Source: a virus
Lineage: Duplodnaviria; Heunggongvirae; Uroviricota; Caudoviricetes
DNA: 64,000 nucleotides
IMG/VR virus record: IMGVR_UViG_3300045988_141797
Reading direction: 5' to 3' (one strand)
A model generated the notes under the pieces. The model made no database searches and was not told the origin of the DNA. It saw only the letters and a list, made by a program, of their open reading frames with translations. The translations under genes were made by a program, and so were the position numbers. Each line of letters begins with the position of its first letter. The first letter of the stretch is position 1. Below are positions 1 through 63,412 of this stretch, piece after piece.

Positions 1-2915
1 CATGACTTGCCGTTAATCTGATGTCTGCAGAACCATCAAAAGCCACTCCACTTATTTTTCTGGCAGTTTTTAACTTTGTCGCTGTAGCTGCATTACCACT
101 TGTATTTTGATTTCCGGCAATATTAACGCCCGGAAGATTGATGTTTGCTGTACCATCAAACGAAACCCCGCCGATTGTGCGTGCCGTCTGAAGTTTCGTT
201 GCAGTTGCAGCATTGCCGGTAGTGCTCTGATTACCTGTTTTATTCACGCCCGGCAGGTCGATATTTGCGGTGCCATTAAATGAAACACCACCAATAGTTC
301 TTGCCGTTAGTAATTTCGTTGCAGACGCCGCGTTCCCAGTTGTGTTCTGGTTGCCCGTGGTATTTACACCAGGGATGGAATCTTTCGATGTGTAGACCTG
401 CGCCCACTCAGACCAACTGGCTGTATCAGCATCTCGTCGTGAACGTACATGTACAGGCGCATGAGCACCACTTGTACCGCTCCAACCTATGAACAACTCG
501 CCTTCACCAGCGGCAGCTGCGCCCTTAAGATGAAGCACATTCCCGTAAGCAGAAGGATAGCCGTTGTTGTACGCCTCATACATCTGCAATCCAGTAGTAG
601 CACCTTGCGTTGTACTGGTGAGCGCAGTAACACGCCCTCTGGACGTAATTGTTGGTATCGAAATGTTCGCAGAACCATCAAACTTAACACCGTTGATTGT
701 GCGGGCTGTTTGCAGTTTTGTAGCGGTTGCAGCATTACCTGTTGTGTTCTGGTTACCAGCAATGTTCACACCCGGCAGGTTGATATTGGCAGTGCCATCA
801 AATGCCACCCCGCCGATTGTTCTTGCCGTCTGAAGTTTCGTTGCGGTTGCAGCATTGCCGGTAGTGCTCTGATTACCCGTTTTATTCACGCCAGGCAGGT
901 CGATATTGGCGCTGCCATCAAATGACACTCCGCCGATTGTGCGTGCCGTCTGAAGTTTCGTTGCGGTTGCAGCATTACCTGTTGTGTTCTGGTTACCAGC
1001 AATGTTCACACCCGGCAGGTTGATATTGGCAGTGCCATCAAATGCCACCCCGCCGATTGTTCTTGCCGTCTGAAGTTTCGTTGCGGTTGCAGCATTGCCG
1101 GTAGTGCTCTGATTACCCGTTTTATTCACGCCAGGCAGGTCGATATTGGCGCTGCCATCAAATGACACTCCGCCGATCGTTCGAGCTGTCTTGAGCTTTG
1201 TGGCAGTATCTGCGTTTCCCGTCAAATTACCAGTAATACCACCGCCAACTTTTACGCCGTTACCGATGGACACCAACCCAGTTCTTAAGTTTATAGAAAA
1301 TGGTCTTAATGGCCCGATGTCACCATTTTCACCCTCCCCTTCATTTGTCGGGATAAGATGAAGATATTCCTCGGATCTCCTGAAGATAAGGCCAAAGTCC
1401 TGGTTAAATATTCGAAGGGCATTTATTGTGCCAATTTTTAGCTGCCCCCCCATTGTGTCGCCAGAACGCTGAACTGCGTTACCAGCTTGAGAAGCAATAT
1501 CCGTTAAGCCAAGATCTTCAGGGGTCAGAGTAATATCTGCCGACCCATCAAATGCCACACCGTTAATCTTTCTGGCTGTTTTTAATTTCGTCGCAGTATC
1601 GGCGTTCCCGGTCAGCGTACCAGTGATCCCCGCGCTGAAAGTCTGGCGTGCACTCCAGGTATTAGCTGTGCTCAACAGGGGGAGCTTTTCTCCGCTGGTT
1701 CCGAGTTCTCTTAAACCAAGGTATTGGATAACAGCCAGTGTGCTTGTTTTAGCAAGAATATCGCGACCGACTGACGTTAAATCAGTCTGGGCTACAGTGT
1801 CTGTTCCGGTAAAGTACGGTAATTTATTTGCCCCCGTCGCCAGGCCAGCGAGCGCGGTTAAGGTTGCGTCGAGAGGCTGCTTACCTGCCAGGGCATTTGT
1901 CATTGTAGTCGCAAAGTTCGGGTCATTGCCCAGCGCCGCAGCAAGCTCATTAAGAGTATCAAGAGCTTCTGGTGATGAGCCGACCAATGCAGAAATAGCG
2001 GCACGAACATAAGCGGTTGTTGCAATCTGAGTGTTGTTCGTACCTTGTGACGCCGTAGGAGCTGTTGGAACCCCCGTAAATGCCGGGCTTAATAACGGCG
2101 CTTTAAGAGCTAAAGCATCATTAATCGTCTGGCTAAACTGGGGATCATTGTTTATTGCATCTGCAATTTTTTTCAGCGTATCCAACGCTGAAGGAGAACC
2201 ATCAATAAGTGCGGTTATAGCGGCCTGAACAAAGGCAGCGTTTGCGATTTGTGTACTGTTTGTACCTTGTTCCGGAGTTGGAGATGTAGGGATACCTATA
2301 AATTCCGGGCTATCAACCGGAGCTTTAAGTTTATTTAACGTGCTGATAGCAAGGGGGGTTGCAGCTTTATATTCTTCGTCACTATCCAAAGCACTGGAGA
2401 ACTCAACACCTACAGCACGATTAGCGCGATATTTAGTGCTAATCATATCTGCGGTAACGGCTTGAGCATTGTCAGGCACGATCACTCGGCATAGCTCAAT
2501 CTGGTTAGATGCTATGCCCTCATCAACGAGAGCTATAATTCTCGCTGCGCTAATATCCGATGAACTATCTACCTGGCTGGTTTTCACTCCATGTTCGTAA
2601 TTAGCTTCAAGAACGATGATTGTCGTTACACCTGCTTCTACAGGAACAACAACATCACTGACTTGCTGCACGGATATCTGACATTTACCCACGTCAACTG
2701 AAGCCGCCCCTCTTCCCTCTGTTTTCTCGGATGTAATCCGCACAAACAGGCCATCCCCTGGCACCGGTTCAAACCCACAGTACACACCGGGCAGAACGAT
2801 ATTTTTCATCTTCCTGTTTAGAGCTTCGGTGCTATACAGCTCAAAGTATTGCATGTCTGCAATTAGTGGAGCGGAAATGTCCGAAGATAAGGTGACAATG
2901 TTCTTTACTTTATCT
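1..2915 (-). CDS. side tail fibre protein, mosaic, 3' end beyond window
   Basis: ATG at 2915 with GAGGG RBS; continuous minus-strand frame to position 1; N-terminal part has lambda Stf-like segments (IPTSPTPEQGTNSTQIANAAF, ALGNDPNFATTMTNALAGKQP); distal part carries tandem fibre repeats (TGNAATATKLQTARTIGGVSFDG) and an EEYLHLIPTNEG block seen in Mu/P1/P2-type fibres. Confidence 0.8.
30..1250. repeat. about 120-bp periodic coding repeats inside the tail fibre gene, including two near-identical 240-bp units
   Basis: direct comparison: about 723-937 is identical to about 963-1177; flanking units are diverged copies. Confidence 0.85.
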
Positions 2916-2925
2916 GCGCACATAA

Positions 2926-3372
2926 TTATCCCTCGACCTGTTCAATGGTCATGAGCAAGCTGTATCGCTTACCTTTGAATAAGGTGTCCTGTTGAGTACA
3001 AACAACCCCAAAAGCCTGATCCTCTGCATCTACGAGAACCAGCGTATTGAAATCGTAAGGTGTATCGTCCGGCATCGTTTCTTGTGGAAAAGCGGCATTA
3101 ATCGTAATGACACCATCGAGGCTGGAAAGAATGAGATTGGATTCAGCAAAATGCTGTGCATCACTTAACTTGAAGTCGAGCGGAATATCAGAAATAGTCC
3201 AGCCACCAGCACTATTTACCGTCACAAGATCGGACTTGCACCAATAAGCCTTTGTCATAACAAAACGCTCACCTCTGCCGATTGCAGACTCTGCACGGCG
3301 AGAGTAGTAGTAAGAAAGGAGTTGCGCCTTGTAAATACTGGAATCGCTTTGGGATTTTAAAGTTTCAGCCAT
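2926..3372 (-). CDS. tail/baseplate-associated protein, hypothetical
   Basis: 148-aa ORF directly upstream of and overlapping-coupled to the fibre gene. Confidence 0.4.
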   Translation of the reverse strand: MAETLKSQSDSSIYKAQLLSYYYSRRAESAIGRGERFVMTKAYWCKSDLVTVNSAGGWTISDIPLDFKLSDAQHFAESNLILSSLDGVITINAAFPQETMPDDTPYDFNTLVLVDAEDQAFGVVCTQQDTLFKGKRYSLLMTIEQVEG

Positions 3373-3488
3373 ACGAACATAGCCCCTTTAACAAGCAATA
3401 AATCGAAGGGCAGTATGTTCAGTTTGTGATTTCCAGTGGTCTTTTGTTTTGAGAAATGGCCCCACCCAGGTTGGCGGGGCCTGGTTTG

Positions 3489-4331
3489 CTAAGGTGCAAA
3501 ATTATAATCCAGCGCCCAGGCGTCGAGCGGGAGTTCATCGAGATGAAGCACTCTTTCCGTCGTCCGGTCTGGCCTTCCTGCGAACTGGATGCCGCCTATT
3601 TGAATGATCGTATCGCTAATAGATAGCTCATCGACCATCTCTTGCGTCGTGTACACCCCCTCAATAAAGGACACTTCCGCAGATAAGCAATTCAGGATCT
3701 CCGCCATTTCCGGCAATGTTGCGCTTAACTGGAAAGAAACACCATCAAACACGATATGCAATGGCAATAGCGGCGCTATAACCGTATCAAAATCAGCAAG
3801 TAGCTTCTGTACAGCAACGTCTCGGTCATCGCTATCATAAGCTCGATACAGCTTATTTTGGTTGACGACAACCAGCCCTCTGGATGTCAGGAAAAACTCA
3901 CCATATTGTGCCTGAGCGGTCGGTATTTCATTTGCGGTCGCGAAGAATGAACCATAGGGATGTTTTTCTGTATCGACAGGCGCATACAAAGGTTCCCATG
4001 AGACGGGGATTGTGCCAAATTCACGCCAGAACGTTTGCTCTATCGGCCTTACTGTTCCTTTGAAGTGCACCTCATCCAGTCGTTGAGCTAATAGCATTGG
4101 CCTGCGTGTTTTGTCCGTTTCTGTGATAACAAAGAAACGACCATATTCAGCAATGCGAGTGTCCATATCCTCCCTTGCCATTGTGAAAAACGATTTACGG
4201 TTGCTTATTCGCGTGAGAATAGGTTCAACCGATTCATTCCACACGTCCTGAATCGTATCAACAAAGGCGGCCCACAATTTAGAATCCTGTTTAAATTGCG
4301 TCAGACGCTCTTTTAGCCAGTTATTCTGCAT
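3489..4331 (-). CDS. putative baseplate/tail protein
   Basis: 280-aa ORF within the baseplate gene string; position only. Confidence 0.35.
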   Translation of the reverse strand: MQNNWLKERLTQFKQDSKLWAAFVDTIQDVWNESVEPILTRISNRKSFFTMAREDMDTRIAEYGRFFVITETDKTRRPMLLAQRLDEVHFKGTVRPIEQTFWREFGTIPVSWEPLYAPVDTEKHPYGSFFATANEIPTAQAQYGEFFLTSRGLVVVNQNKLYRAYDSDDRDVAVQKLLADFDTVIAPLLPLHIVFDGVSFQLSATLPEMAEILNCLSAEVSFIEGVYTTQEMVDELSISDTIIQIGGIQFAGRPDRTTERVLHLDELPLDAWALDYNFAP

Positions 4332-25159: not shown

Positions 25160-26002
25160 TTAATTAAGTGTGGCTATAATGTCGTTAGCTATCATTCGCG
25201 TTGATGCTTTACAGGATACAGAGCGACGGGATGGCATAGGATACACCTTGAAGCCATTGCCAACGTAAAGTTCGCGAATGTTAGGCGCACCACTGTTTGT
25301 TATCACAATTTTCGCTCCGCGTCTGTGGGCATCCACCAGCAGTGACACCAGCCGTTGTTGATCTTCAAACCTAAAGCTATGCCCTGAGTAATTTGTAAAT
25401 CCGGTAGTGTCGGGCAATGGTTCATAGGGGGGATCGCAGAAAATCACATCATCATTCCCGGCAGCCTCAATTACACCAGCAAAATCGCCGGACACAAATT
25501 CCGAATACTTTGAAATATCGTCAGCCAGGAACGCCTCCATTTCCGCGAGAGGGAAGTGGGGTGATTTCTGCTTTCCATATCCGACGTTGAACTCTCCTTT
25601 ACGGTTATAGCGAGTGACGCCATTAAAACAATGACGATTGAGATACAGGAACGCCGCTGCATGGTGAAGGGAATCATAAGCACCATTGTTGAATGCATTG
25701 CGAACATTCAAAAATGCATCAGCAGAGTTGTAATCCTGAAAAAAACGATATGCCAGTGTGATAAGAGAATGCCCTTCACGCTGCAATGTCTGATAGAAGT
25801 TAATCAGGTCATTATTGATATCGTTCAGCAGGTTGCTTTTAAATCCGGCATTAGTGAAAACAGCGCCACCTCCAACGAAAGGTTCTATCAACCGTTTTCC
25901 GTGGGGCAGGTGTTCGAAGATAATGGGCAGTGCAGAAAATTTGCCGCCGACCCACTTAAAGACTGGGCGATCAAATTCGTCCTCCGAGCGAATACGTCGC
26001 AT
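25160..26002 (-). CDS. dam: DNA adenine (N6) methyltransferase, Dam-like
   Basis: FKWVGGK N-terminal motif and DPPY catalytic motif; ORF-track start 26194 rejected in favour of the ATG at 26002. Confidence 0.8.
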   Translation of the reverse strand: MRRIRSEDEFDRPVFKWVGGKFSALPIIFEHLPHGKRLIEPFVGGGAVFTNAGFKSNLLNDINNDLINFYQTLQREGHSLITLAYRFFQDYNSADAFLNVRNAFNNGAYDSLHHAAAFLYLNRHCFNGVTRYNRKGEFNVGYGKQKSPHFPLAEMEAFLADDISKYSEFVSGDFAGVIEAAGNDDVIFCDPPYEPLPDTTGFTNYSGHSFRFEDQQRLVSLLVDAHRRGAKIVITNSGAPNIRELYVGNGFKVYPMPSRRSVSCKASTRMIANDIIATLN

Positions 26003-26069
26003 ATGGCTGATAGTGGCTTCCGCCGCAGGACGATGATTGTCGCTATAAGAAATAAATTTAGCACCAATA

Positions 26070-26876
26070 TCAGCCACGGATTCCCTCCTTATTTGCTTCA
26101 AATACAGCTCTTGCAAAACCGTAAGGTGTCGCGCTACGAAAATTCGCTCTTTCAGGCCCTGGCGGTGCCTTGTGTATTCGGTTATCTGGATCACCTAACG
26201 ACTTGTCGATTCGCGGAGTTGGCATGATGAATCCTTGTCCGCTCCACAGGCATGTTTTTTTGGTGTAATTGTCTTCCTTGCAATATGCAGTGAAGTGATA
26301 AGGATGGAATATGTGATCAGGTTTACGCCAGAATGTCGATATTTGGCTGACCGGGTTTTCAATCATGTACGGGCAACCAATCATCTTTGCAATGTCGTAA
26401 CACTGCCAGACAACCTGCATTGCTTTGAACTGGAAAACCGGATCTTTTTTTGCTTTATCTGCGAACCAGCGTGCGCCAGATACAGCCAGGTCAGTACATG
26501 GAGGGAAACCGGCTAAAAATACAACTCTGTGCAAATTTTTCCGAAGGAAATTGTAGACCTCATCACTGTCAATAATTGCGCTGATACGTGTGAGTACAGC
26601 ACCTGACTCCATCAATTGGCTGCCGGACTCCTGGTGTTGCGGATCGACAATGACTGCATCAATGCCGTGTTCCAGCCAGGGGGAAACCATATTCCCTGTA
26701 TAATCACAAAGACTCACCGCCAGCGGTCGGTTATTAATGCTCTGCTTCACCGCCAATGGCCTCCACCAGCGAGCTAAACATCGCGGATAATTCGCTTGTG
26801 AACAGAATGAAGTCAGCATCAAATCGCTGGGCAACATCTTCACGGTCGATGTCATCGTTCTGGTCATAGAGATCAT
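26070..26876 (-). CDS. DNA cytosine-C5 methyltransferase-like
   Basis: PC motif (AGFPPCTD) and ENV motif (MIENPV); true start probably internal (about 26819-26855), it overlaps the rdgC 3' end. Confidence 0.55.
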   Translation of the reverse strand: MISMTRTMTSTVKMLPSDLMLTSFCSQANYPRCLARWWRPLAVKQSINNRPLAVSLCDYTGNMVSPWLEHGIDAVIVDPQHQESGSQLMESGAVLTRISAIIDSDEVYNFLRKNLHRVVFLAGFPPCTDLAVSGARWFADKAKKDPVFQFKAMQVVWQCYDIAKMIGCPYMIENPVSQISTFWRKPDHIFHPYHFTAYCKEDNYTKKTCLWSGQGFIMPTPRIDKSLGDPDNRIHKAPPGPERANFRSATPYGFARAVFEANKEGIRG

Positions 26877-53065: not shown

Positions 53066-53716
53066 TCACTCCACAACAAACCAGTCACAGGCCAGTAAAT
53101 CATCCACAGACGGCAACCAAACGCTGTCCATATTTTGTGCATCTTTCAATACAAAATGGTCACCATAAGGAACGTGAATGCCGTGTAAATTGACGCTTCC
53201 AGCGAGAACTAACCAGCAGAATTGCTTTTCGCCTTTCCACTCGCGTCGGGCAACTTTCTTGCCTTCCTTCAACCACATTAGCGCATCAGAGAAGTCGGCT
53301 GCTTCAAGGTCGATTTCTTCTTGCTGGGTGGTGATGCCACCAGCAGAAATAGTTACGCTCCCAGTAAGATTAATCATCACGCCGTTGTCATCCGTAATGA
53401 TGACCGTGGTTCCATTTTTGGAGGCGTCGTTAACCAGGCCATAGCATTCCTCAAATGGTTTCTCCGGGGCATAGAACAGATAACCGTTTTCATAAACGAT
53501 CAGATACCCGCCAGTTTTTGGTCGGTGTTTTTGTAAAAACATTGCGTCAACACAAACTGTTGCCCCTTTTGGTTCAACGAGTTCGATGCAGCCCCAAAGT
53601 GGGGCATCAGTTACTCCGAAAATAACAACATTTTTGATTTTCGATGCACTAACGTTTTTGTGAGCTTTGTATTTGGGAAGGAACTTAAAAAGCTCTTTCG
53701 TGGGCATGTTATTCAT
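53066..53716 (-). CDS. two-domain protein with C-terminal DUF2829 (Tad2-like) domain
   Basis: C-terminal 75 aa DFSDALMWLKEGKKVARREWKG...VWLPSVDDLLACDWFVVE matches the DUF2829 pattern. Confidence 0.5.
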   Translation of the reverse strand: MNNMPTKELFKFLPKYKAHKNVSASKIKNVVIFGVTDAPLWGCIELVEPKGATVCVDAMFLQKHRPKTGGYLIVYENGYLFYAPEKPFEECYGLVNDASKNGTTVIITDDNGVMINLTGSVTISAGGITTQQEEIDLEAADFSDALMWLKEGKKVARREWKGEKQFCWLVLAGSVNLHGIHVPYGDHFVLKDAQNMDSVWLPSVDDLLACDWFVVE

Positions 53717-57606: not shown

Positions 57607-59115
57607 TTAAATGTCAATATCAGGAATATCCACTTCTGCCAACACCTGATCGCGGAATGTTGCGAGTTCTGCGCCAATGTCTTCATTAGCAGGCACGTAA
57701 TCCACCAGCATAGTGAAGCAGTAGGTATCCCATCTGTCCGGTGACTTGATGTTTAACTTCTGCCGCATGTGCTCCTTGCGCATCATCGCTACCTTCCCTT
57801 CTTCGTTAAGCATATACGGGATTTTTGATGCCTGATCTGCGGTTTTGGGGTCACTATCGATACGCATACGCCCGGATTTAATGGCATCCCCTGCCATAAT
57901 ATTGGCGTAAGCACGCTGATTGACAAAGCGTTCTCTGTCTCTCAGCGCAAACATAGGCTTACCCCAACGGATGCGAACGGGATTAGCACCACGGCGGACA
58001 AGCTGCGCACACGTATCTGAACCAAAGCCATCAGCATCCACAGCAATGGTGATGTTCGGGTATTTATCAGGAGTGCATTCGTTATAGATAAAGTCGGCAA
58101 AAGCCAACGGGTCCATAGTGCCTGGCATCTCCAGTATCTTAAAGTTTACAACGCGTCGTTTCTCACGATAACCGGATACTTTGCATATATTGAGCACCGA
58201 TTTGTCGCGACCATTACCGACGTCAGCGGTCGCTACCCAGCCCCAATCTTTCTCCAGCAACACTTTACGCCGTGCGGCGCGGTCGCACTCATCACGACCA
58301 AGCAAATACCCGTTAATTGCACGCGGGAACTGGCCCAGCACCTTAACCATGTACTCCAGCGAATCCCTGCCGCCGTACTCCAGCAATTTCTCACGAATAA
58401 AGCTCGGTTCAACGAATGGTGATTCTTCAGAGTTAAGGACTATTGCCGTCCAGACACCTTCCGGATTGCCTTCTGCCTTTGCCCTTGAATGGTGAGATTC
58501 ATAAAAGTAACCGCTTGGACGCGTAGGCTGGGAAAGCATGAGCATACGGTTATCTTTCTGCGTTAACGCCCCCGTCATGACGTTAATCGCCTTATCGGAT
58601 ATGCCCGATGCTTCATCAAGGATTAGCAGTAAATGCTCAGCGTGCTCCCCCGCCAGTGCCTCTTCGTTACCGAGTCGATAACCTTTACAGAGCACTTCCC
58701 ATATCCCTTTACGGGAACGCTCATAAAACATGGTGTCAGACAGGACAAAATAGGTCTGTAACCAGCCGTGACGCTTAACAGCATTCGCCCAAAACTGTTT
58801 CACGTATTTGAATACGCCTGTTTTTACCTGGCCTATTTTGTTCGCAACAATAATGACGCGGGCGTCGGGGAACAGGATCATGAAAATTAGTAGCAACATC
58901 GCGGTAAGGGACGACTTACCCGTTCCGTGTCCGGACGTAACGGTCGTCCTGCTCCCCGTCTCCTGCACTGACTGAATGATCTGCTGCTGCTGGTGGGAGG
59001 GGAACATCCCAAAAATATCGACAACCGCCTGGGTAAAGTTGTATCGATACCTGATAACCATATCGCGCCAACGTGGATCACTGGTGACGCACTTAATCTT
59101 ACGACCACCAGCCAT
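57607..59115 (-). CDS. terminase large subunit (PacB-like)
   Basis: Walker A SGHGTGKSS, Walker B LLLILDEAS, C-terminal nuclease-type acidic residues; 502 aa. Confidence 0.8.
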   Translation of the reverse strand: MAGGRKIKCVTSDPRWRDMVIRYRYNFTQAVVDIFGMFPSHQQQQIIQSVQETGSRTTVTSGHGTGKSSLTAMLLLIFMILFPDARVIIVANKIGQVKTGVFKYVKQFWANAVKRHGWLQTYFVLSDTMFYERSRKGIWEVLCKGYRLGNEEALAGEHAEHLLLILDEASGISDKAINVMTGALTQKDNRMLMLSQPTRPSGYFYESHHSRAKAEGNPEGVWTAIVLNSEESPFVEPSFIREKLLEYGGRDSLEYMVKVLGQFPRAINGYLLGRDECDRAARRKVLLEKDWGWVATADVGNGRDKSVLNICKVSGYREKRRVVNFKILEMPGTMDPLAFADFIYNECTPDKYPNITIAVDADGFGSDTCAQLVRRGANPVRIRWGKPMFALRDRERFVNQRAYANIMAGDAIKSGRMRIDSDPKTADQASKIPYMLNEEGKVAMMRKEHMRQKLNIKSPDRWDTYCFTMLVDYVPANEDIGAELATFRDQVLAEVDIPDIDI

Positions 59116-60479
59116 TAGTCATCCTCCGGCTGGTCTATCGCAATCTCGTCATCTACAGCATCAAAACCGGTATCCCCCGCGTCATAATCACCGTAGATAT
59201 CAGCCGTGGCGGAAGGGTCTATATTCAGGTCTTCATCATTGGCCTCAAATTCACCGGCTTTACGTTCTCCGTTCCGGTCGTAATCCCCCATCCCAAGCCT
59301 ATCAACGATTTTCGCTACTTCAGCCCGGCGTTGTGCAAGCCATTGTGGGAGTCCAGCTTGTTGCTCGGCAAACTGTTTCGCCTCTTTATCCAGTTGCTCA
59401 TCATCAACATCGTTAACGTCAGAAACCGGAGGCTCCAGAAGTGAGATCGCTTTTGCCGCTCGTGCCGCCAGGATAGCCGGGACACTGACGCCCTGCCGCT
59501 CGATATATTCAGCAACACCTATATCATCCAGCTCCTCGCGCTCACGCATACGTATAGCGGCGGCGATAACCCTGGCGGCGCGTGCGTCAGCGCCAATGCG
59601 ATACTCAATCTCCTTGCCACGCTGCTCGGCTTGTAGGCGGGCAATCGCCAGTTTTTCTCTGGCCTCAGCCTCCCTGAATGCCTGCTGACGCGCGCCCTGC
59701 GCAAGTTTTTCATCCCCCTGGCGTAGCTTCTGCTCGTTCTGATAGATGGCTGCCAGCCTGGTGATAAAGTCATTCATGTAGTAGGCCGCATCGCTGATCA
59801 GTCCGAGAAGACGCTGCCCTGGGTGCATCCCCTCTGGCTGTGTATCACCGAGGGCGTCAATCTCTTCCTGTAGTCGCTCCGCTTCCTGGTCAACGATAGC
59901 CTGATACTGAATTGCTCGTTCCTGCGCCATCTGTATCGCAAGTCGTAAATGTTCAGTCGCGCCGTTCTTCATCATCTCACGGGCGACGTTGGTGGCAGGC
60001 AAAGTGGTGCTTTGAGCTGATGAATCAGGGATCATTTGCAATGATCCCTTGTTTCGTTGGGCTTTATCGCTGCTTTTAGGGATCATTTCTCCCATTTCAT
60101 CACAAAATGATCCCTTCACATCCTTGTGTATCTTGTTGTTATTACTTGGCTTTTCTTTGTGATCCGCATTTTGTTTTTGCGGCATGGCGCGGAACCGTCC
60201 ACCAGCCAACGATTTGTCAGTTTTTGTAAATTCTGTGCTTTTATTAGCCTTTTTTTGCTCTTTTTTTGAGCCGGTGGCGCTGCTTTTTGCGCGCTGTTTT
60301 GTACTTTTCCCGGTAGCCTTAGCTTTCGCCTTAACCTCATTTTTTTTCATATTGAGATGCTTTCTGGCGGTGTTAAAGCTGAGGTCATGCTGCTCGCAAT
60401 ATTCTTTTATGGTGATCCCGGTTGCTTCTCTTAACTCCAGGAACTTAGCTCGATGCGCTTCCCAGTTAATTAACGTCAT
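59115..60479 (-). CDS. terminase small subunit (PacA-like), contains pac-like site
   Basis: N-terminal HTH, overlap-coupled to large terminase; GATC heptamer cluster within N-terminal coding region. Confidence 0.55.
   Translation of the reverse strand: MTLINWEAHRAKFLELREATGITIKEYCEQHDLSFNTARKHLNMKKNEVKAKAKATGKSTKQRAKSSATGSKKEQKKANKSTEFTKTDKSLAGGRFRAMPQKQNADHKEKPSNNNKIHKDVKGSFCDEMGEMIPKSSDKAQRNKGSLQMIPDSSAQSTTLPATNVAREMMKNGATEHLRLAIQMAQERAIQYQAIVDQEAERLQEEIDALGDTQPEGMHPGQRLLGLISDAAYYMNDFITRLAAIYQNEQKLRQGDEKLAQGARQQAFREAEAREKLAIARLQAEQRGKEIEYRIGADARAARVIAAAIRMREREELDDIGVAEYIERQGVSVPAILAARAAKAISLLEPPVSDVNDVDDEQLDKEAKQFAEQQAGLPQWLAQRRAEVAKIVDRLGMGDYDRNGERKAGEFEANDEDLNIDPSATADIYGDYDAGDTGFDAVDDEIAIDQPEDD
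60028..60167. repeat. pac-like cluster of GATC-containing heptamers
   Basis: GGGATCA 60028, TGATCCC 60042, GGGATCA 60079, TGATCCC 60108, TGATCCG 60161; five Dam sites in about 140 bp. Confidence 0.55.
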
Positions 60480-60868
60480 AGGGAAGCCTCACGTTTTTTC
60501 ACAGCGGCGTTCCATAGCTGGTTAGTCATCGCCACCAACTGACGCTGCTCCTTTCGTAATTGAGCTTCTATCTTTCGGTTGGTGTTTTTCACCAACAGCC
60601 GACCGAATTCAGGAGTGCGCCCGCGCACCTTGAACTGGTATCCATTCAGGCCATGTAACCAATATTTCCGGGGGTATACGCGGTCGTCTATTTCGCAAAT
60701 GGCACGACTGGAACGAACAAAAAAACGTATGATGTTATTTACGTTTACGCGCGACACATGAAGGTGAGGATATTGTGCTTTTGCACGGCTGGTGATTTCG
60801 GTGACCGTCAGATAGCAGTTAGCCCTGATCATGATATCCGCTATTTCGGCGCTACTGATTTGCTCCAT
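60476..60868 (-). CDS. hypothetical protein, candidate late activator by position
   Basis: 130 aa, first gene of the operator-controlled terminase operon. Confidence 0.3.
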   Translation of the reverse strand: MEQISSAEIADIMIRANCYLTVTEITSRAKAQYPHLHVSRVNVNNIIRFFVRSSRAICEIDDRVYPRKYWLHGLNGYQFKVRGRTPEFGRLLVKNTNRKIEAQLRKEQRQLVAMTNQLWNAAVKKREASL

Positions 60869-60976: not shown

Positions 60977-61359
60977 TACCAGCGGGATAAACGAACAACA
61001 TGCTTAACTTTTGCCTCCCACTTCCCTTTATGTTTGTTGATCACCGCCTGCGCCATCTTCAGACTGGCTTCAAAATCGGCTTTTCGACCACTATTGCCCA
61101 CCAGCAACGCTCCGTCTATTTCAGGTAAGCATAAGTAATCCTGCTCGACGGTAAGCGGCATTGATGATGTAACCTGGCAGGCTTTCCATCTGAAGCGTAT
61201 GCGCACACTCCTGACTGACATCACGACATAACCTGATATTGTGCTCTTGTGTCCGGCGTCTGTGCGTGTAGCCTTGCATGATGTTATCTTGCAGGTGATG
61301 ATATCCCAACCAATGTGCATCGCATCCTCAATGCGTAATTTAGTAGCCTCGTACATCAA
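60976..61359 (-). CDS. hypothetical protein
   Basis: 127-aa ORF. Confidence 0.3.
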   Translation of the reverse strand: MMYEATKLRIEDAMHIGWDIITCKITSCKATRTDAGHKSTISGYVVMSVRSVRIRFRWKACQVTSSMPLTVEQDYLCLPEIDGALLVGNSGRKADFEASLKMAQAVINKHKGKWEAKVKHVVRLSRW

Positions 61360-61931
61360 AAAACCTCCCAGTCAGTAGCGATAATATCAACACCAGTTGC
61401 AAACCAGTCTGTCTGTGCCTGTAAATCCCCATTCATCATTACCAGGCGAGGCATAACCATCACATCACAACCTTCAACAATATCGAATGCCTCTTCCGGC
61501 AGGAATTCGACGAGCTTTTCTTTGCTGCCAACACTGCCACGGAGCATCGATATATAGCTCCCTTTAGGCCATGATGTTCGCCGGGCATCAAGCCCCTTCA
61601 TCATCCAGTAAAAGGCCGATGAGAACGGGATGTTCTTTTTGGCGATGAGCACGTTATTCGCTTCTGTGTACTTCAGGAACTTAACTAACCTTACCATCGA
61701 CTCGGATAACGCAATGTACGGCTCATGATTGATTGCTGACACACTTACGCCGTGCAGTCCAACACTTACCACTGTCATATCACCGTTCTGTGCGGTTTCG
61801 ATGTTGACGCCTTTACGAACTAACGCTGCATAAAGCTCCTCGCGCTTTTGCGTCCAGCATTCTCGTCGCCCTATAAAGTCACTCAAAACGAGATCATCTT
61901 CTAAATACGCGTTATCGTTCGCCGTTAACAT
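61356..61931 (-). CDS. second DUF2829 (Tad2-like) domain protein
   Basis: C-terminal half FSSAFYWMMKGLDARRTSWPKG...DLQAQTDWFATGVDIIATDWEVF parallels the DUF2829 block of the 53066 ORF. Confidence 0.4.
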   Translation of the reverse strand: MLTANDNAYLEDDLVLSDFIGRRECWTQKREELYAALVRKGVNIETAQNGDMTVVSVGLHGVSVSAINHEPYIALSESMVRLVKFLKYTEANNVLIAKKNIPFSSAFYWMMKGLDARRTSWPKGSYISMLRGSVGSKEKLVEFLPEEAFDIVEGCDVMVMPRLVMMNGDLQAQTDWFATGVDIIATDWEVF

Positions 61932-62383: not shown

Positions 62384-62459
62384 TGGTGGCCCCTACCGGA
62401 CTTGAACCGGTGACCGTGCGATTATGAGTCGCCCGCTCTAACCACTGAGCTAAAGGGCC
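62384..62459 (-). tRNA. tRNA-Ile2-like (anticodon CAU)
   Basis: cloverleaf with CCA encoded; anticodon arm GGCGA-CTCATAA-TCGCA; close to E. coli ileX from memory; could formally be elongator Met. Confidence 0.8.
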
Positions 62460-62469
62460 AGATTACTGT

Positions 62470-62598
62470 TAATTACGCTTACGCTTTTTGCCAGAACCGC
62501 GTAAGGCTTTTGCCGCTTGCTCTACCCCGTATGCAACCACCAGCAGAAACAATAATGTCCACTCCGGGTTTTTATCGGCAAACGCCCAAAAATCCATC
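62470..62598 (-). CDS. candidate 42-aa membrane peptide
   Basis: manual translation MDFWAFADKNPEWTLLFLLVVAYGVEQAAKALRGSGKKRKRN with AAGGTGG RBS; below ORF-track cutoff. Confidence 0.25.
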
Positions 62599-62888
62599 AC
62601 TTGCAGCCACCTTTTAAGACAAAACGCCATTGCTGTTAGGTTGCGGTGCCGGGTGCCTCCCGGTGACGTTAACCAGTTAACAATTAACGCCGGATCACTT
62701 ATGGATTCTCGTTACGCCAGTAAAAAGACCACCTTTACTGTTTTAACTGTTCCGCGTGCGCTTAGCCGCATTCACCGCAATGGTAAGAGCATTTGGCTGA
62801 CTGGGCGGCGATGACGCCTGTACGCATTTGGTGATCCGGTTCTGCTTCCGGCATTCGCTTAATTAGCCAAATACTCTTAACGTTGCGC

Positions 62889-62975
62889 TGGCGGAGAGTA
62901 ATGGAATCGAACCATCATCGCTTGCGCAATGGGACGGTTTTCAAGACCGCTTGAGCACCATGCTCCCTACTCTCC
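62889..62975 (-). tRNA. tRNA-Ser (anticodon UGA), type II
   Basis: anticodon arm GCGGT-CTTGAAA-ACCGT, long variable arm, T-loop TTCGATT, discriminator G, CCA encoded; short D-loop. Confidence 0.65.
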
Positions 62976-63081
62976 AGTGATTGTGATGGTCGGTGCTGAA
63001 CTCCGACACAGGGTTGTAGCAAGCCCCGCAAAGCGCGCACTACTGTAGTTGCGGCACATCAGCCTGTGCATTCATCACAAC

Positions 63082-63155
63082 GGTAAGGGTACTTCGTAGG
63101 GATTCGAACCCTCTGCCAAGCTCGGCGATCTCCGACGTCGCAAAATACCCTTACC
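63082..63155 (-). ncRNA. non-canonical tRNA-like element
   Basis: perfect 10-bp terminal helix GGTAAGGGTA/TACCCTTACC extendable to about 15 bp, canonical T-arm AGGG-TTCGAAT-CCCT, no standard D or anticodon arm, no encoded CCA. Confidence 0.35.
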
Positions 63156-63163
63156 TGTTGTGT

Positions 63164-63239
63164 TGGTGCCGGTTAACGGACTCGAACCGCTGACATCCTG
63201 CTTACAAGGCAGGCGCTCTACCAACTGAGCTAAACCGGC
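63164..63239 (-). tRNA. tRNA-Thr (anticodon UGU)
   Basis: GCCGGTT acceptor, anticodon arm CCTGC-CTTGTAA-GCAGG, T-loop TTCGAGT, CCA encoded. Confidence 0.85.
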
Positions 63240-63243
63240 AATT

Positions 63244-63330
63244 TGGTGGGGAGTGATGGAGTCGAACCATCCGAGTCGCAATGACAGTAGATTTACAGTC
63301 TACCCCGCTACCCCTACGGACTAACTCCCC
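63244..63330 (-). tRNA. tRNA-Tyr (anticodon GUA), type II
   Basis: anticodon arm GTAGA-CTGTAAA-TCTAC, long variable arm, T-loop TTCGACT, CCA encoded. Confidence 0.75.
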
Positions 63331-63335
63331 TAAAT

Positions 63336-63412
63336 TGGCGATGGTGGGTGGATTCGAACCACCGACCGACAGCTTAGAAGGCTGCTGCTCTATCCTACTG
63401 AGCTACACCATC
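63336..63412 (-). tRNA. tRNA-Arg (anticodon UCU)
   Basis: GATGGTG acceptor, anticodon arm GCAGC-CTTCTAA-GCTGT, T-loop TTCGAAT, CCA encoded. Confidence 0.8.

Follow-up and report, generated by a model that had tools for sequence, protein, structure and literature searches.

The stretch analysed here is a 64,000-nucleotide (nt) piece of the IMG/VR virus record IMGVR_UViG_3300045988_141797, and we refer to the whole of it as the window. In the 5' third of its small terminase gene, pacA, lies a cluster of short inverted repeats, each built around a GATC site for Dam methylation, and it is likely, in our view, that a D6-like phage-plasmid has the core of its packaging initiation (pac) site here. 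The repeats, their location in pacA, the purifying selection acting on them at the DNA level, and the presence of pacA, pacB and dam are direct observations. The cluster had been pointed out in an earlier note, made from the letters of the window without database searches, which drew a parallel to the pac site of phage P1. The parallel holds for the relative position in the gene, for the DNA-level selection and for the Dam orthologue, but not for the repeated word, which is AAWGATCCC (W, A or T) in inverted pairs, not TGATCA/G. The window site would be the positional and functional counterpart of P1 pac with a word of its own; because it shows neither the TGATCA/G hexamers nor the 4 + 3 layout of P1, it is not P1 pac in the strict sequence sense.

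The repeat cluster in pacA

Five GATC sites, starting at 60030, 60043, 60081, 60109 and 60161, lie within 60030-60164, just as the earlier note had counted them (five within about 140 base pairs, bp). They fall in nt 313-452 of the 1365 nt of pacA (codons 105-151 of 454; minus strand), so that their placement in the 5' part of a PacA-like gene was also correct. GGGATCA occurs at 60028 and 60079, and TGATCCC at 60042 and 60108. These heptamers, already recognised as inverted pairs, are parts of longer repeats of 10-11 nt: an 11-nt word is found in one orientation as AGGGATCATTT at 60027-60037 and 60078-60088, and in the opposite orientation as AATGATCCCTT at 60040-60050 and 60106-60116. Four of the five cluster GATCs thus form two perfect inverted pairs of the word AGGGATCATT / AATGATCCCT, one pair with 10-nt arms and a 3-nt gap, the other with 11-nt arms and a 16-nt gap. 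The fifth site is TGATCCG (60160-60166). All five are TGATCC hexamers, three on the plus strand and two on the minus strand. The gene and its repeat elements, the latter given without strand, are as follows.

59115-60479, minus strand: pacA, small terminase subunit, 454 amino acids (aa), with a predicted disordered linker (residues 46-159) encoded by the DNA in which the repeats are found
60027-60050: palindrome AGGGATCATT-tgc-AATGATCCCT, repeat elements 4 and 5, with GATC at 60030 and 60043; pacA nt 430-453; the 10-nt arms are 100% complementary
60078-60088: repeat element 3, with GATC at 60081; it reads AGGGATCATTT on the plus strand and AAATGATCCCT on the coding strand
60105-60116: repeat element 2, with GATC at 60109; it reads AAATGATCCCTT on the plus strand and GGGATCATTT on the coding strand, and is the inverted partner of element 3, with 16 nt between the arms
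60158-60166: repeat element 1, tgTGATCCG, with GATC at 60161; a poorer fit to the word
60412-60419: possible distal element, with GATC at 60414; the word is conserved here in a sixth copy, which reads GGGATCAC on the coding strand

This is the densest GATC cluster of the window (five in 140 bp, the next best elsewhere having three), in which GATC occurs once per 283 bp, without depletion. The density had been offered in the earlier note as an argument against chance, and this argument fails: five or more GATCs in some 140-bp stretch were reached in 237 of 1000 first-order Markov simulations of 64 kilobases (kb), hence the density alone is not significant. What is non-random is the repeated 10-mer, not the GATC count: AATGATCCCT is present in four copies within 90 bp, while 0.13 copies are expected in the whole window, both strands counted.

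Conservation of the repeats

For comparison we assembled pacA DNA from 29 IMG/VR loci, from phage D6 and from eight more distant PacA homologues, which were found by protein search and whose contigs were then fetched. Six lineages (the window type, three D6 sublineages, L027 and L033) align without gaps over the repeat-bearing 5' part of pacA at 70-80% nucleotide identity. GATC occurs at identical gene positions in all six, namely nt 63, 316, 368, 396, 434 and 447, thus all five cluster sites are invariant, while the other GATCs of the gene differ. Along the 5.3 kb of lpa-pacA-pacB, 8 of the 20 window GATCs are kept in all five comparators; these include the five cluster sites (5/5) and the one at 60414, whereas of 14 others, located outside the 5' part of pacA, 2 are kept (3 of 15 if 60414 is counted there; hypergeometric p=0.0036).

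Within codons 46-160, compared between the window, D6 and L027, 84% of the linker positions are invariant in the 9-nt repeat footprints and 41% outside them (Fisher p=4e-8), and for third codon positions the values are 87% and 33% (p=1e-4). The encoded linker is poorly conserved, with 24% invariant residues versus 76% in the rest of PacA. In D6 a GGA to AGA change (Gly to Arg, for example in element 2) alters the residue and retains the GATC.

The GATCC of element 3 (60080-60084) is invariant in all eight lineages compared, and only three other invariant runs in pacA reach 5 nt or more; GATCCC (60079-60084) is kept in at least seven of the eight, and GATC is found at the aligned position in 13 of 13 D6-type sequences, representing 11 lineages. 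In the 5' half of pacA, the longest stretches that the eight lineages share nearly without variation are this GATCCC, AAATGATCCC at 60028-60037 and TTACAAAAA at 60221-60229. The position of element 1 is invariant only in the clade formed by the window, D6, L027 and L033. At the distal site, 60414, all six lineages of the clade encode Gly-Ile-Thr as GGG-ATC-AC, whereas L040 encodes the same peptide without GATC. Taken over the family, these alignments indicate that the GATC repeats are under purifying selection at the DNA level. Two scans of species-representative genomes found no PacA relatives, and a metagenome scan and a second scan of viral contigs returned no lineages beyond the 11 known.

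The family-wide word and the architecture of the site

The word was derived from 64 GATC sites located in pacA nt 100-560 of 11 lineages, whose PacA proteins are 32-75% identical. On a common strand it reads A-A-(T/A)-GATC-C-C-(C/T), i.e. it is an asymmetric AAWGATCCC, with C at +1 in 59, C at +2 in 50, T at -1 in 50 (A in 13) and A at -2 in 55 of the 64 sites. Elsewhere in the window AWGATCC is found at 11 of 221 other GATC sites. Copies are found on either strand and in each of the three frames, where they encode the peptides G-D-H, G-S-F/L, M-I-P and N-D-P, which excludes a purely protein-level explanation.

In relatives at 43-55% amino acid identity there are two GATC clusters about 173 bp apart. 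Cluster A (nt ~160-240) typically has GGGGATCATT once or twice, followed by AAAAGATCCC; cluster B occupies nt ~370-500, and a conserved island, GAATTTACAAAAACTGAC, lies between the two. The layout is reminiscent of P1, in which two groups of repeats surround the region of the cuts. Cluster A is missing from the window/D6/L027/L033 clade, the D6 clade of E. coli and Salmonella, which has instead clade-specific conserved sites at nt 316 (60161) and nt 63 (60414). This pattern looks like turnover of repeat copies, as far as a single phylogenetic split allows such a reading. Two further features of the window belong to this architecture.

60214-60233, minus strand: island of conserved DNA that may form the centre of the pac site; it reads GAATTTACAAAAACTGACAA on the coding strand and is not included in the interval of the earlier note
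60129-60141, minus strand: tentative IHF-like site that separates element 1 from element 2; it reads TAACAACAAGATA on the coding strand

The island contains TTACAAAAA, which is invariant or nearly so in eight lineages and is surrounded by variable linker DNA; in distant relatives the island has its place between the two GATC clusters. Its complement shares the 8-mer TTGTCAGT with the mapped cleavage region of P1 pac, on the opposite strand; Cronobacter phage JK004, a P1 relative, does not have this 8-mer, and the match to P1 is possibly due to chance. The IHF-like site has 2 mismatches to the consensus WATCAANNNNTTR, and as 10 such matches occur in pacA by chance, it is a weak candidate. In L036 and L037 the aligned sites have 1 mismatch, and the IHF site annotated in P1 pac, AAACAAAGAGTTA, is similar to it.

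One D6-type contig of 23.6 kb, L030 (IMGVR_UViG_2537562191_000021), opens with the very nucleotide that follows the GGATC of element 1 (pacA nt 316-320). No other of about 30 contigs has an end within pacA, and this single case may be a real DNA end or a coincidence.

Comparison with P1 pac and other packaging signals

P1 pac is a 161-bp segment inside pacA with seven TGATCA/G repeats that contain Dam sites; it has been proposed that hemimethylated pac is bound and fully methylated pac is cleaved, IHF and HU also take part, and synonymous mutation of the hexamers reduced the phage titre about 9-fold (PMC10028697). In the P1 GenBank record the IHF site and the pac cleavage points are annotated inside pacA. 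Four TGATCA (nt ~194-233) are followed by the IHF site and the cuts (nt 256-285, the annotated cleavage being at nt 276-285) and then by TGATCG, TGATCA and TGATCA (nt ~324-353), so P1 pac spans pacA nt ~194-353 as compared to nt 313-452 for the window repeats. In a protein-guided codon alignment HEX4 of P1 adjoins cluster A, and HEX3 the start of cluster B, of the D6-type relatives.

Much is shared between the D6-type site and that of P1, where PacA/PacB make the cut with IHF/HU and under regulation by Dam methylation. Both are located within the 5' third of pacA, the gene that immediately precedes pacB in an lpa-pacA-pacB-c1 module common to the two, both consist of multiple short repeats with a Dam site in each, both elements encode orthologous Dam proteins, and in both the repeats are conserved islands amid fast-evolving DNA that codes for a linker. 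P1 and JK004, whose PacA proteins are 70% identical, served as positive control: they keep the TGATCA/G hexamers at the same positions while the flanks have diverged. An experimentally defined pac therefore leaves the same comparative footprint as that seen in the D6-type genes, and the comparison with P1-family pac sites proposed in the earlier note turned out in favour of the parallel, the sites occupying the same relative part of pacA with the same pattern of conservation.

There are also differences. None of the five window sites is TGATCA or TGATCG, there are five copies (plus the distal one) and not seven, they are arranged in inverted pairs and not as 4 + 3 around a centre of about 90 bp, the PacA proteins are about 20% identical, and the best IHF match in the window has 2 mismatches. 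It is quite possible, if somewhat short of probable, that pacases of the D6 type read this different asymmetric, Dam-site-containing word in inverted pairs, with a specificity orthogonal to that for TGATCA/G, and that the signal turns over within linker DNA.

The nearest relative for comparison is phage D6 itself, whose orthologous pacA (MF356679 nt 2800-4164; AY753669) has the same five GATCs and the distal one at identical gene positions. Two of its copies, GAGATCATT and GGGATCTTC, are weaker than those of the window, hence the perfect 10-bp palindromes are specific to the window lineage. No pac site is annotated in the fetched pacA regions of either D6 GenBank record, and full-text literature searches found no description of a D6-type pac site; the literature on D6 itself may contain one.

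Packaging signals embedded in small-terminase genes are also known from P22, Sf6 and SPP1 (pacL/pacC/pacR in the latter), where repeated recognition boxes flank the region of the cut. Those sites resemble the window cluster in their repeated boxes and in their location, but are not known to have Dam sites or methylation control, and the small terminases are unrelated. Replication origins under the control of SeqA and Dam, namely oriC and the oriR of the P1 plasmid, are likewise marked by clustered GATC repeats. They share with the window cluster several short GATC-containing repeats within about 150 bp; unlike them, the window cluster has no DnaA boxes, iterons or AT-rich unwinding region, and is situated inside a terminase gene.

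The PacA protein

An AlphaFold model of PacA, computed with an alignment of 18 sequences, has a mean predicted local distance difference test (pLDDT) score of 68. Residues 6-42 form a three-helix bundle at the N-terminus (pLDDT ~85), residues 46-159 are modelled as disordered (pLDDT <50), and the C-terminal part is long and helical. The repeats are wholly within the DNA for the predicted disordered stretch, therefore a dense cis-acting signal can coexist with coding sequence; on this model, the pac signal is placed where the coding constraint is lowest. No PDB relative of PacA was found by sequence.

Many database entries for D6-type PacA are only 326 aa long (family P0011, 310 members; also L041, and L042 nt 2617-3981). 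These use an internal ATG just before the first MIP, and the frame upstream of it is identical to that of D6. The idea that they are truncated at contigs ending at pac was rejected, because they sit inside contigs with the upstream frame open. Judging from these sequences, the 326-aa PacA is an artefact of start-site annotation which hides the pac-containing 5' part of the gene.

Alternative explanations

The repeats could be a by-product of peptide motifs in PacA (Gly-Ser-Phe/Leu and Met-Ile-Pro) without any function as DNA. The words do translate to K-G-S-F/L and (E/Q)-M-I-P, two times each, most lineages keep the 'IP' that follows the coding-strand copies, and the protein alignment has an invariant I133. 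We nevertheless regard this explanation as very unlikely, since the same DNA word in three frames and on both strands yields unrelated peptides, third codon positions within the words are far less variable (87% invariant) than in the rest of the linker (33%), the nonsynonymous Gly to Arg changes leave GATC intact, and the region is predicted to be disordered with just 24% of its residues invariant. It is also improbable, to a slightly lesser degree, that the cluster is a regulatory or replication element responsive to Dam and SeqA, such as an origin-like element or a methylation-sensitive promoter or operator, and not pac. The GATC in all copies, the dam gene on the element and the GATC clusters of oriC and of the P1 origin would fit such a role. 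Against it, there is no DnaA box with up to 1 mismatch within 6 kb (the nearest is at 53100, about 7 kb off), no iteron-like direct repeats or other repeat families were seen nearby, the promoter scan found no promoter-like site in the cluster, the position in pacA matches that of P1 pac, and the word co-varies with the PacA lineage, being TGATCA/G in P1-type and AAWGATCCC in D6-type genes.

That the inverted repeats act as nucleic-acid hairpins, either as structure in the pacA mRNA or as an intrinsic terminator of antisense transcription, is in our opinion extremely unlikely. A scan did flag a terminator-like hairpin at 60027-60049 on the plus strand, and the single strands fold better than shuffled sequences (z = -3.8 to -4.4). 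The number of terminators is, on the other hand, within the expectation from shuffles (1 found versus 1.8 +/- 1.3), one-arm changes in D6 and L027 are uncompensated (GGGATCTT or GAGATCAT facing AATGATCCC) while GATC is kept, and the spacing between partner arms varies among sites from 3 to 18 nt and more. There was no Rfam match, the permissive threshold giving only noise (mir-3070 at E=0.26).

Assignment as a pac site and proposed mechanism

Several points weigh against the assignment of the cluster as pac. DNA ends and cleavage at this place are predictions from sequence comparison. The word is asymmetric AAWGATCCC with a TGATCC core, as opposed to the palindromic TGATCA/G of P1, and the bipartite 4 + 3 layout of P1 is not evident in the window clade, where the upstream cluster is missing. 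The IHF consensus has no match with up to 1 mismatch in the 5' region of the window pacA. The GATC density, as said above, is not significant by itself. The 'MIP' peptide encoded by two copies of the word is itself conserved, so that conservation could be partly at the protein level. Finally, a Foldseek search with the PacA model gave nothing at E<1, the N-terminal bundle being only weakly like small helix-turn-helix domains, thus PacA has no significant structural match to a characterised DNA-binding domain.

From P1 we infer by analogy that PacA binds here, where the cut is made, which way packaging proceeds and that methylation is required. Initiation at the D6-type pac site could accordingly go as follows. 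The terminase, made up of the small subunit PacA and the large subunit PacB, would recognise several copies of AAWGATCCC, arranged in inverted pairs in the 5' third of pacA, and would assemble on them, probably bending the DNA together with host IHF/HU as in P1. It would then cut nearby, and headful packaging would go on towards pacB-c1. Because every copy of the word contains a Dam site, we propose that recognition or cleavage is probably gated by adenine methylation carried out by the host Dam and by the element's own Dam, which, as in P1, would restrict cutting to late, fully methylated DNA.

Gene context and identity of the element

Homology of pacA, pacB and lpa, the gene order and the near-identical plasmids described below all identify the window as part of a D6-like phage-plasmid that is distantly related to P1. 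The neighbours of pacA that matter here, and the methyltransferase gene, are the following.

57607-59115, minus strand: pacB, large terminase subunit, 502 aa; 56% identical to P1 PacB
60476-60868, minus strand: lpa, late promoter activator (PF25716, E=2.5e-50); overlaps the start of pacA
25160-26194, minus strand: Dam-family N6-adenine DNA methyltransferase; orthologue of the Dam domain of P1 Dmt

The window pacA is 77% identical to that of D6 at the nucleotide level and 74% at the amino acid level. Its product matches phrog_1711 'terminase' at E=9e-167 and also small-terminase PHROGs, while its homology to P1 PacA is distant (~20% identity). At 99% or higher identity the gene is found in six plasmids of ~90-94 kb from E. 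coli and E. marmotae (NZ_LR890273 is an example of a plasmid this close), and the module is present in 130 PLSDB plasmids. The order of the genes is lpa-pacA-pacB in the window and lpa-pacA-pacB-c1 in all relatives.

The lpa stop codon and the pacA start codon overlap (ATGA, 60476-60479); in contrast to P1, no intergenic space is left in which a late promoter could lie immediately before pacA. A 191-aa open reading frame (61356-61931, minus strand), situated two genes upstream of lpa and occurring also in several relatives, encodes a Tad2-like (Thoeris anti-defence) domain (PF11195, E=4e-10). Further along, at 62384-63412 on the minus strand, there are five tRNA genes (Met-CAT, Ser-TGA, Thr-TGT, Tyr-GTA and Arg-TCT), and several long listed 'open reading frames' in that interval are translated tRNA DNA.

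The methyltransferase is a Dam protein, as the earlier note had said (PF02086, E=2e-53; TIGR00571 'dam', E=2e-68), only the boundary given there (25160-26002) has to be corrected: the open reading frame extends to 26194, and 26002 is an internal ATG start. Its product shares 69.5% identity with the Dam part of P1 Dmt and 71% with the D6 adenine methylase. Directly upstream, and overlapping it, is a 268-aa open reading frame without Pfam match (26070-26876, minus strand). In the D6 record a putative cytosine methylase is annotated beside the adenine methylase, and in P1 the Dam-like region is within the single dmt gene.

Significance

The kind of element described here and its logic are already known, and the pac site is an expected feature of such an element, thus our result is a confirmation and extension. 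For packaging under the licence of DNA methylation the textbook example is P1 pac, a site that also serves in P1 phagemid and PAC-vector technology. In E. coli and Salmonella, phage-plasmids of the D6-like kind are common and able to move genes by transduction, and knowledge of the D6-type pac word would help to predict which DNA is packaged and whether cross-packaging with P1 can be expected. The word would also represent a natural specificity variant for studying how small terminases read DNA, and the site an example of a cis-acting signal lodged in DNA that codes for a disordered protein linker. If the specificities of the two systems are truly orthogonal, the D6-type site would offer a second, independent pac/pacase module for phagemid delivery, and P1-type and D6-type phage-plasmids could share a cell without packaging each other's DNA.

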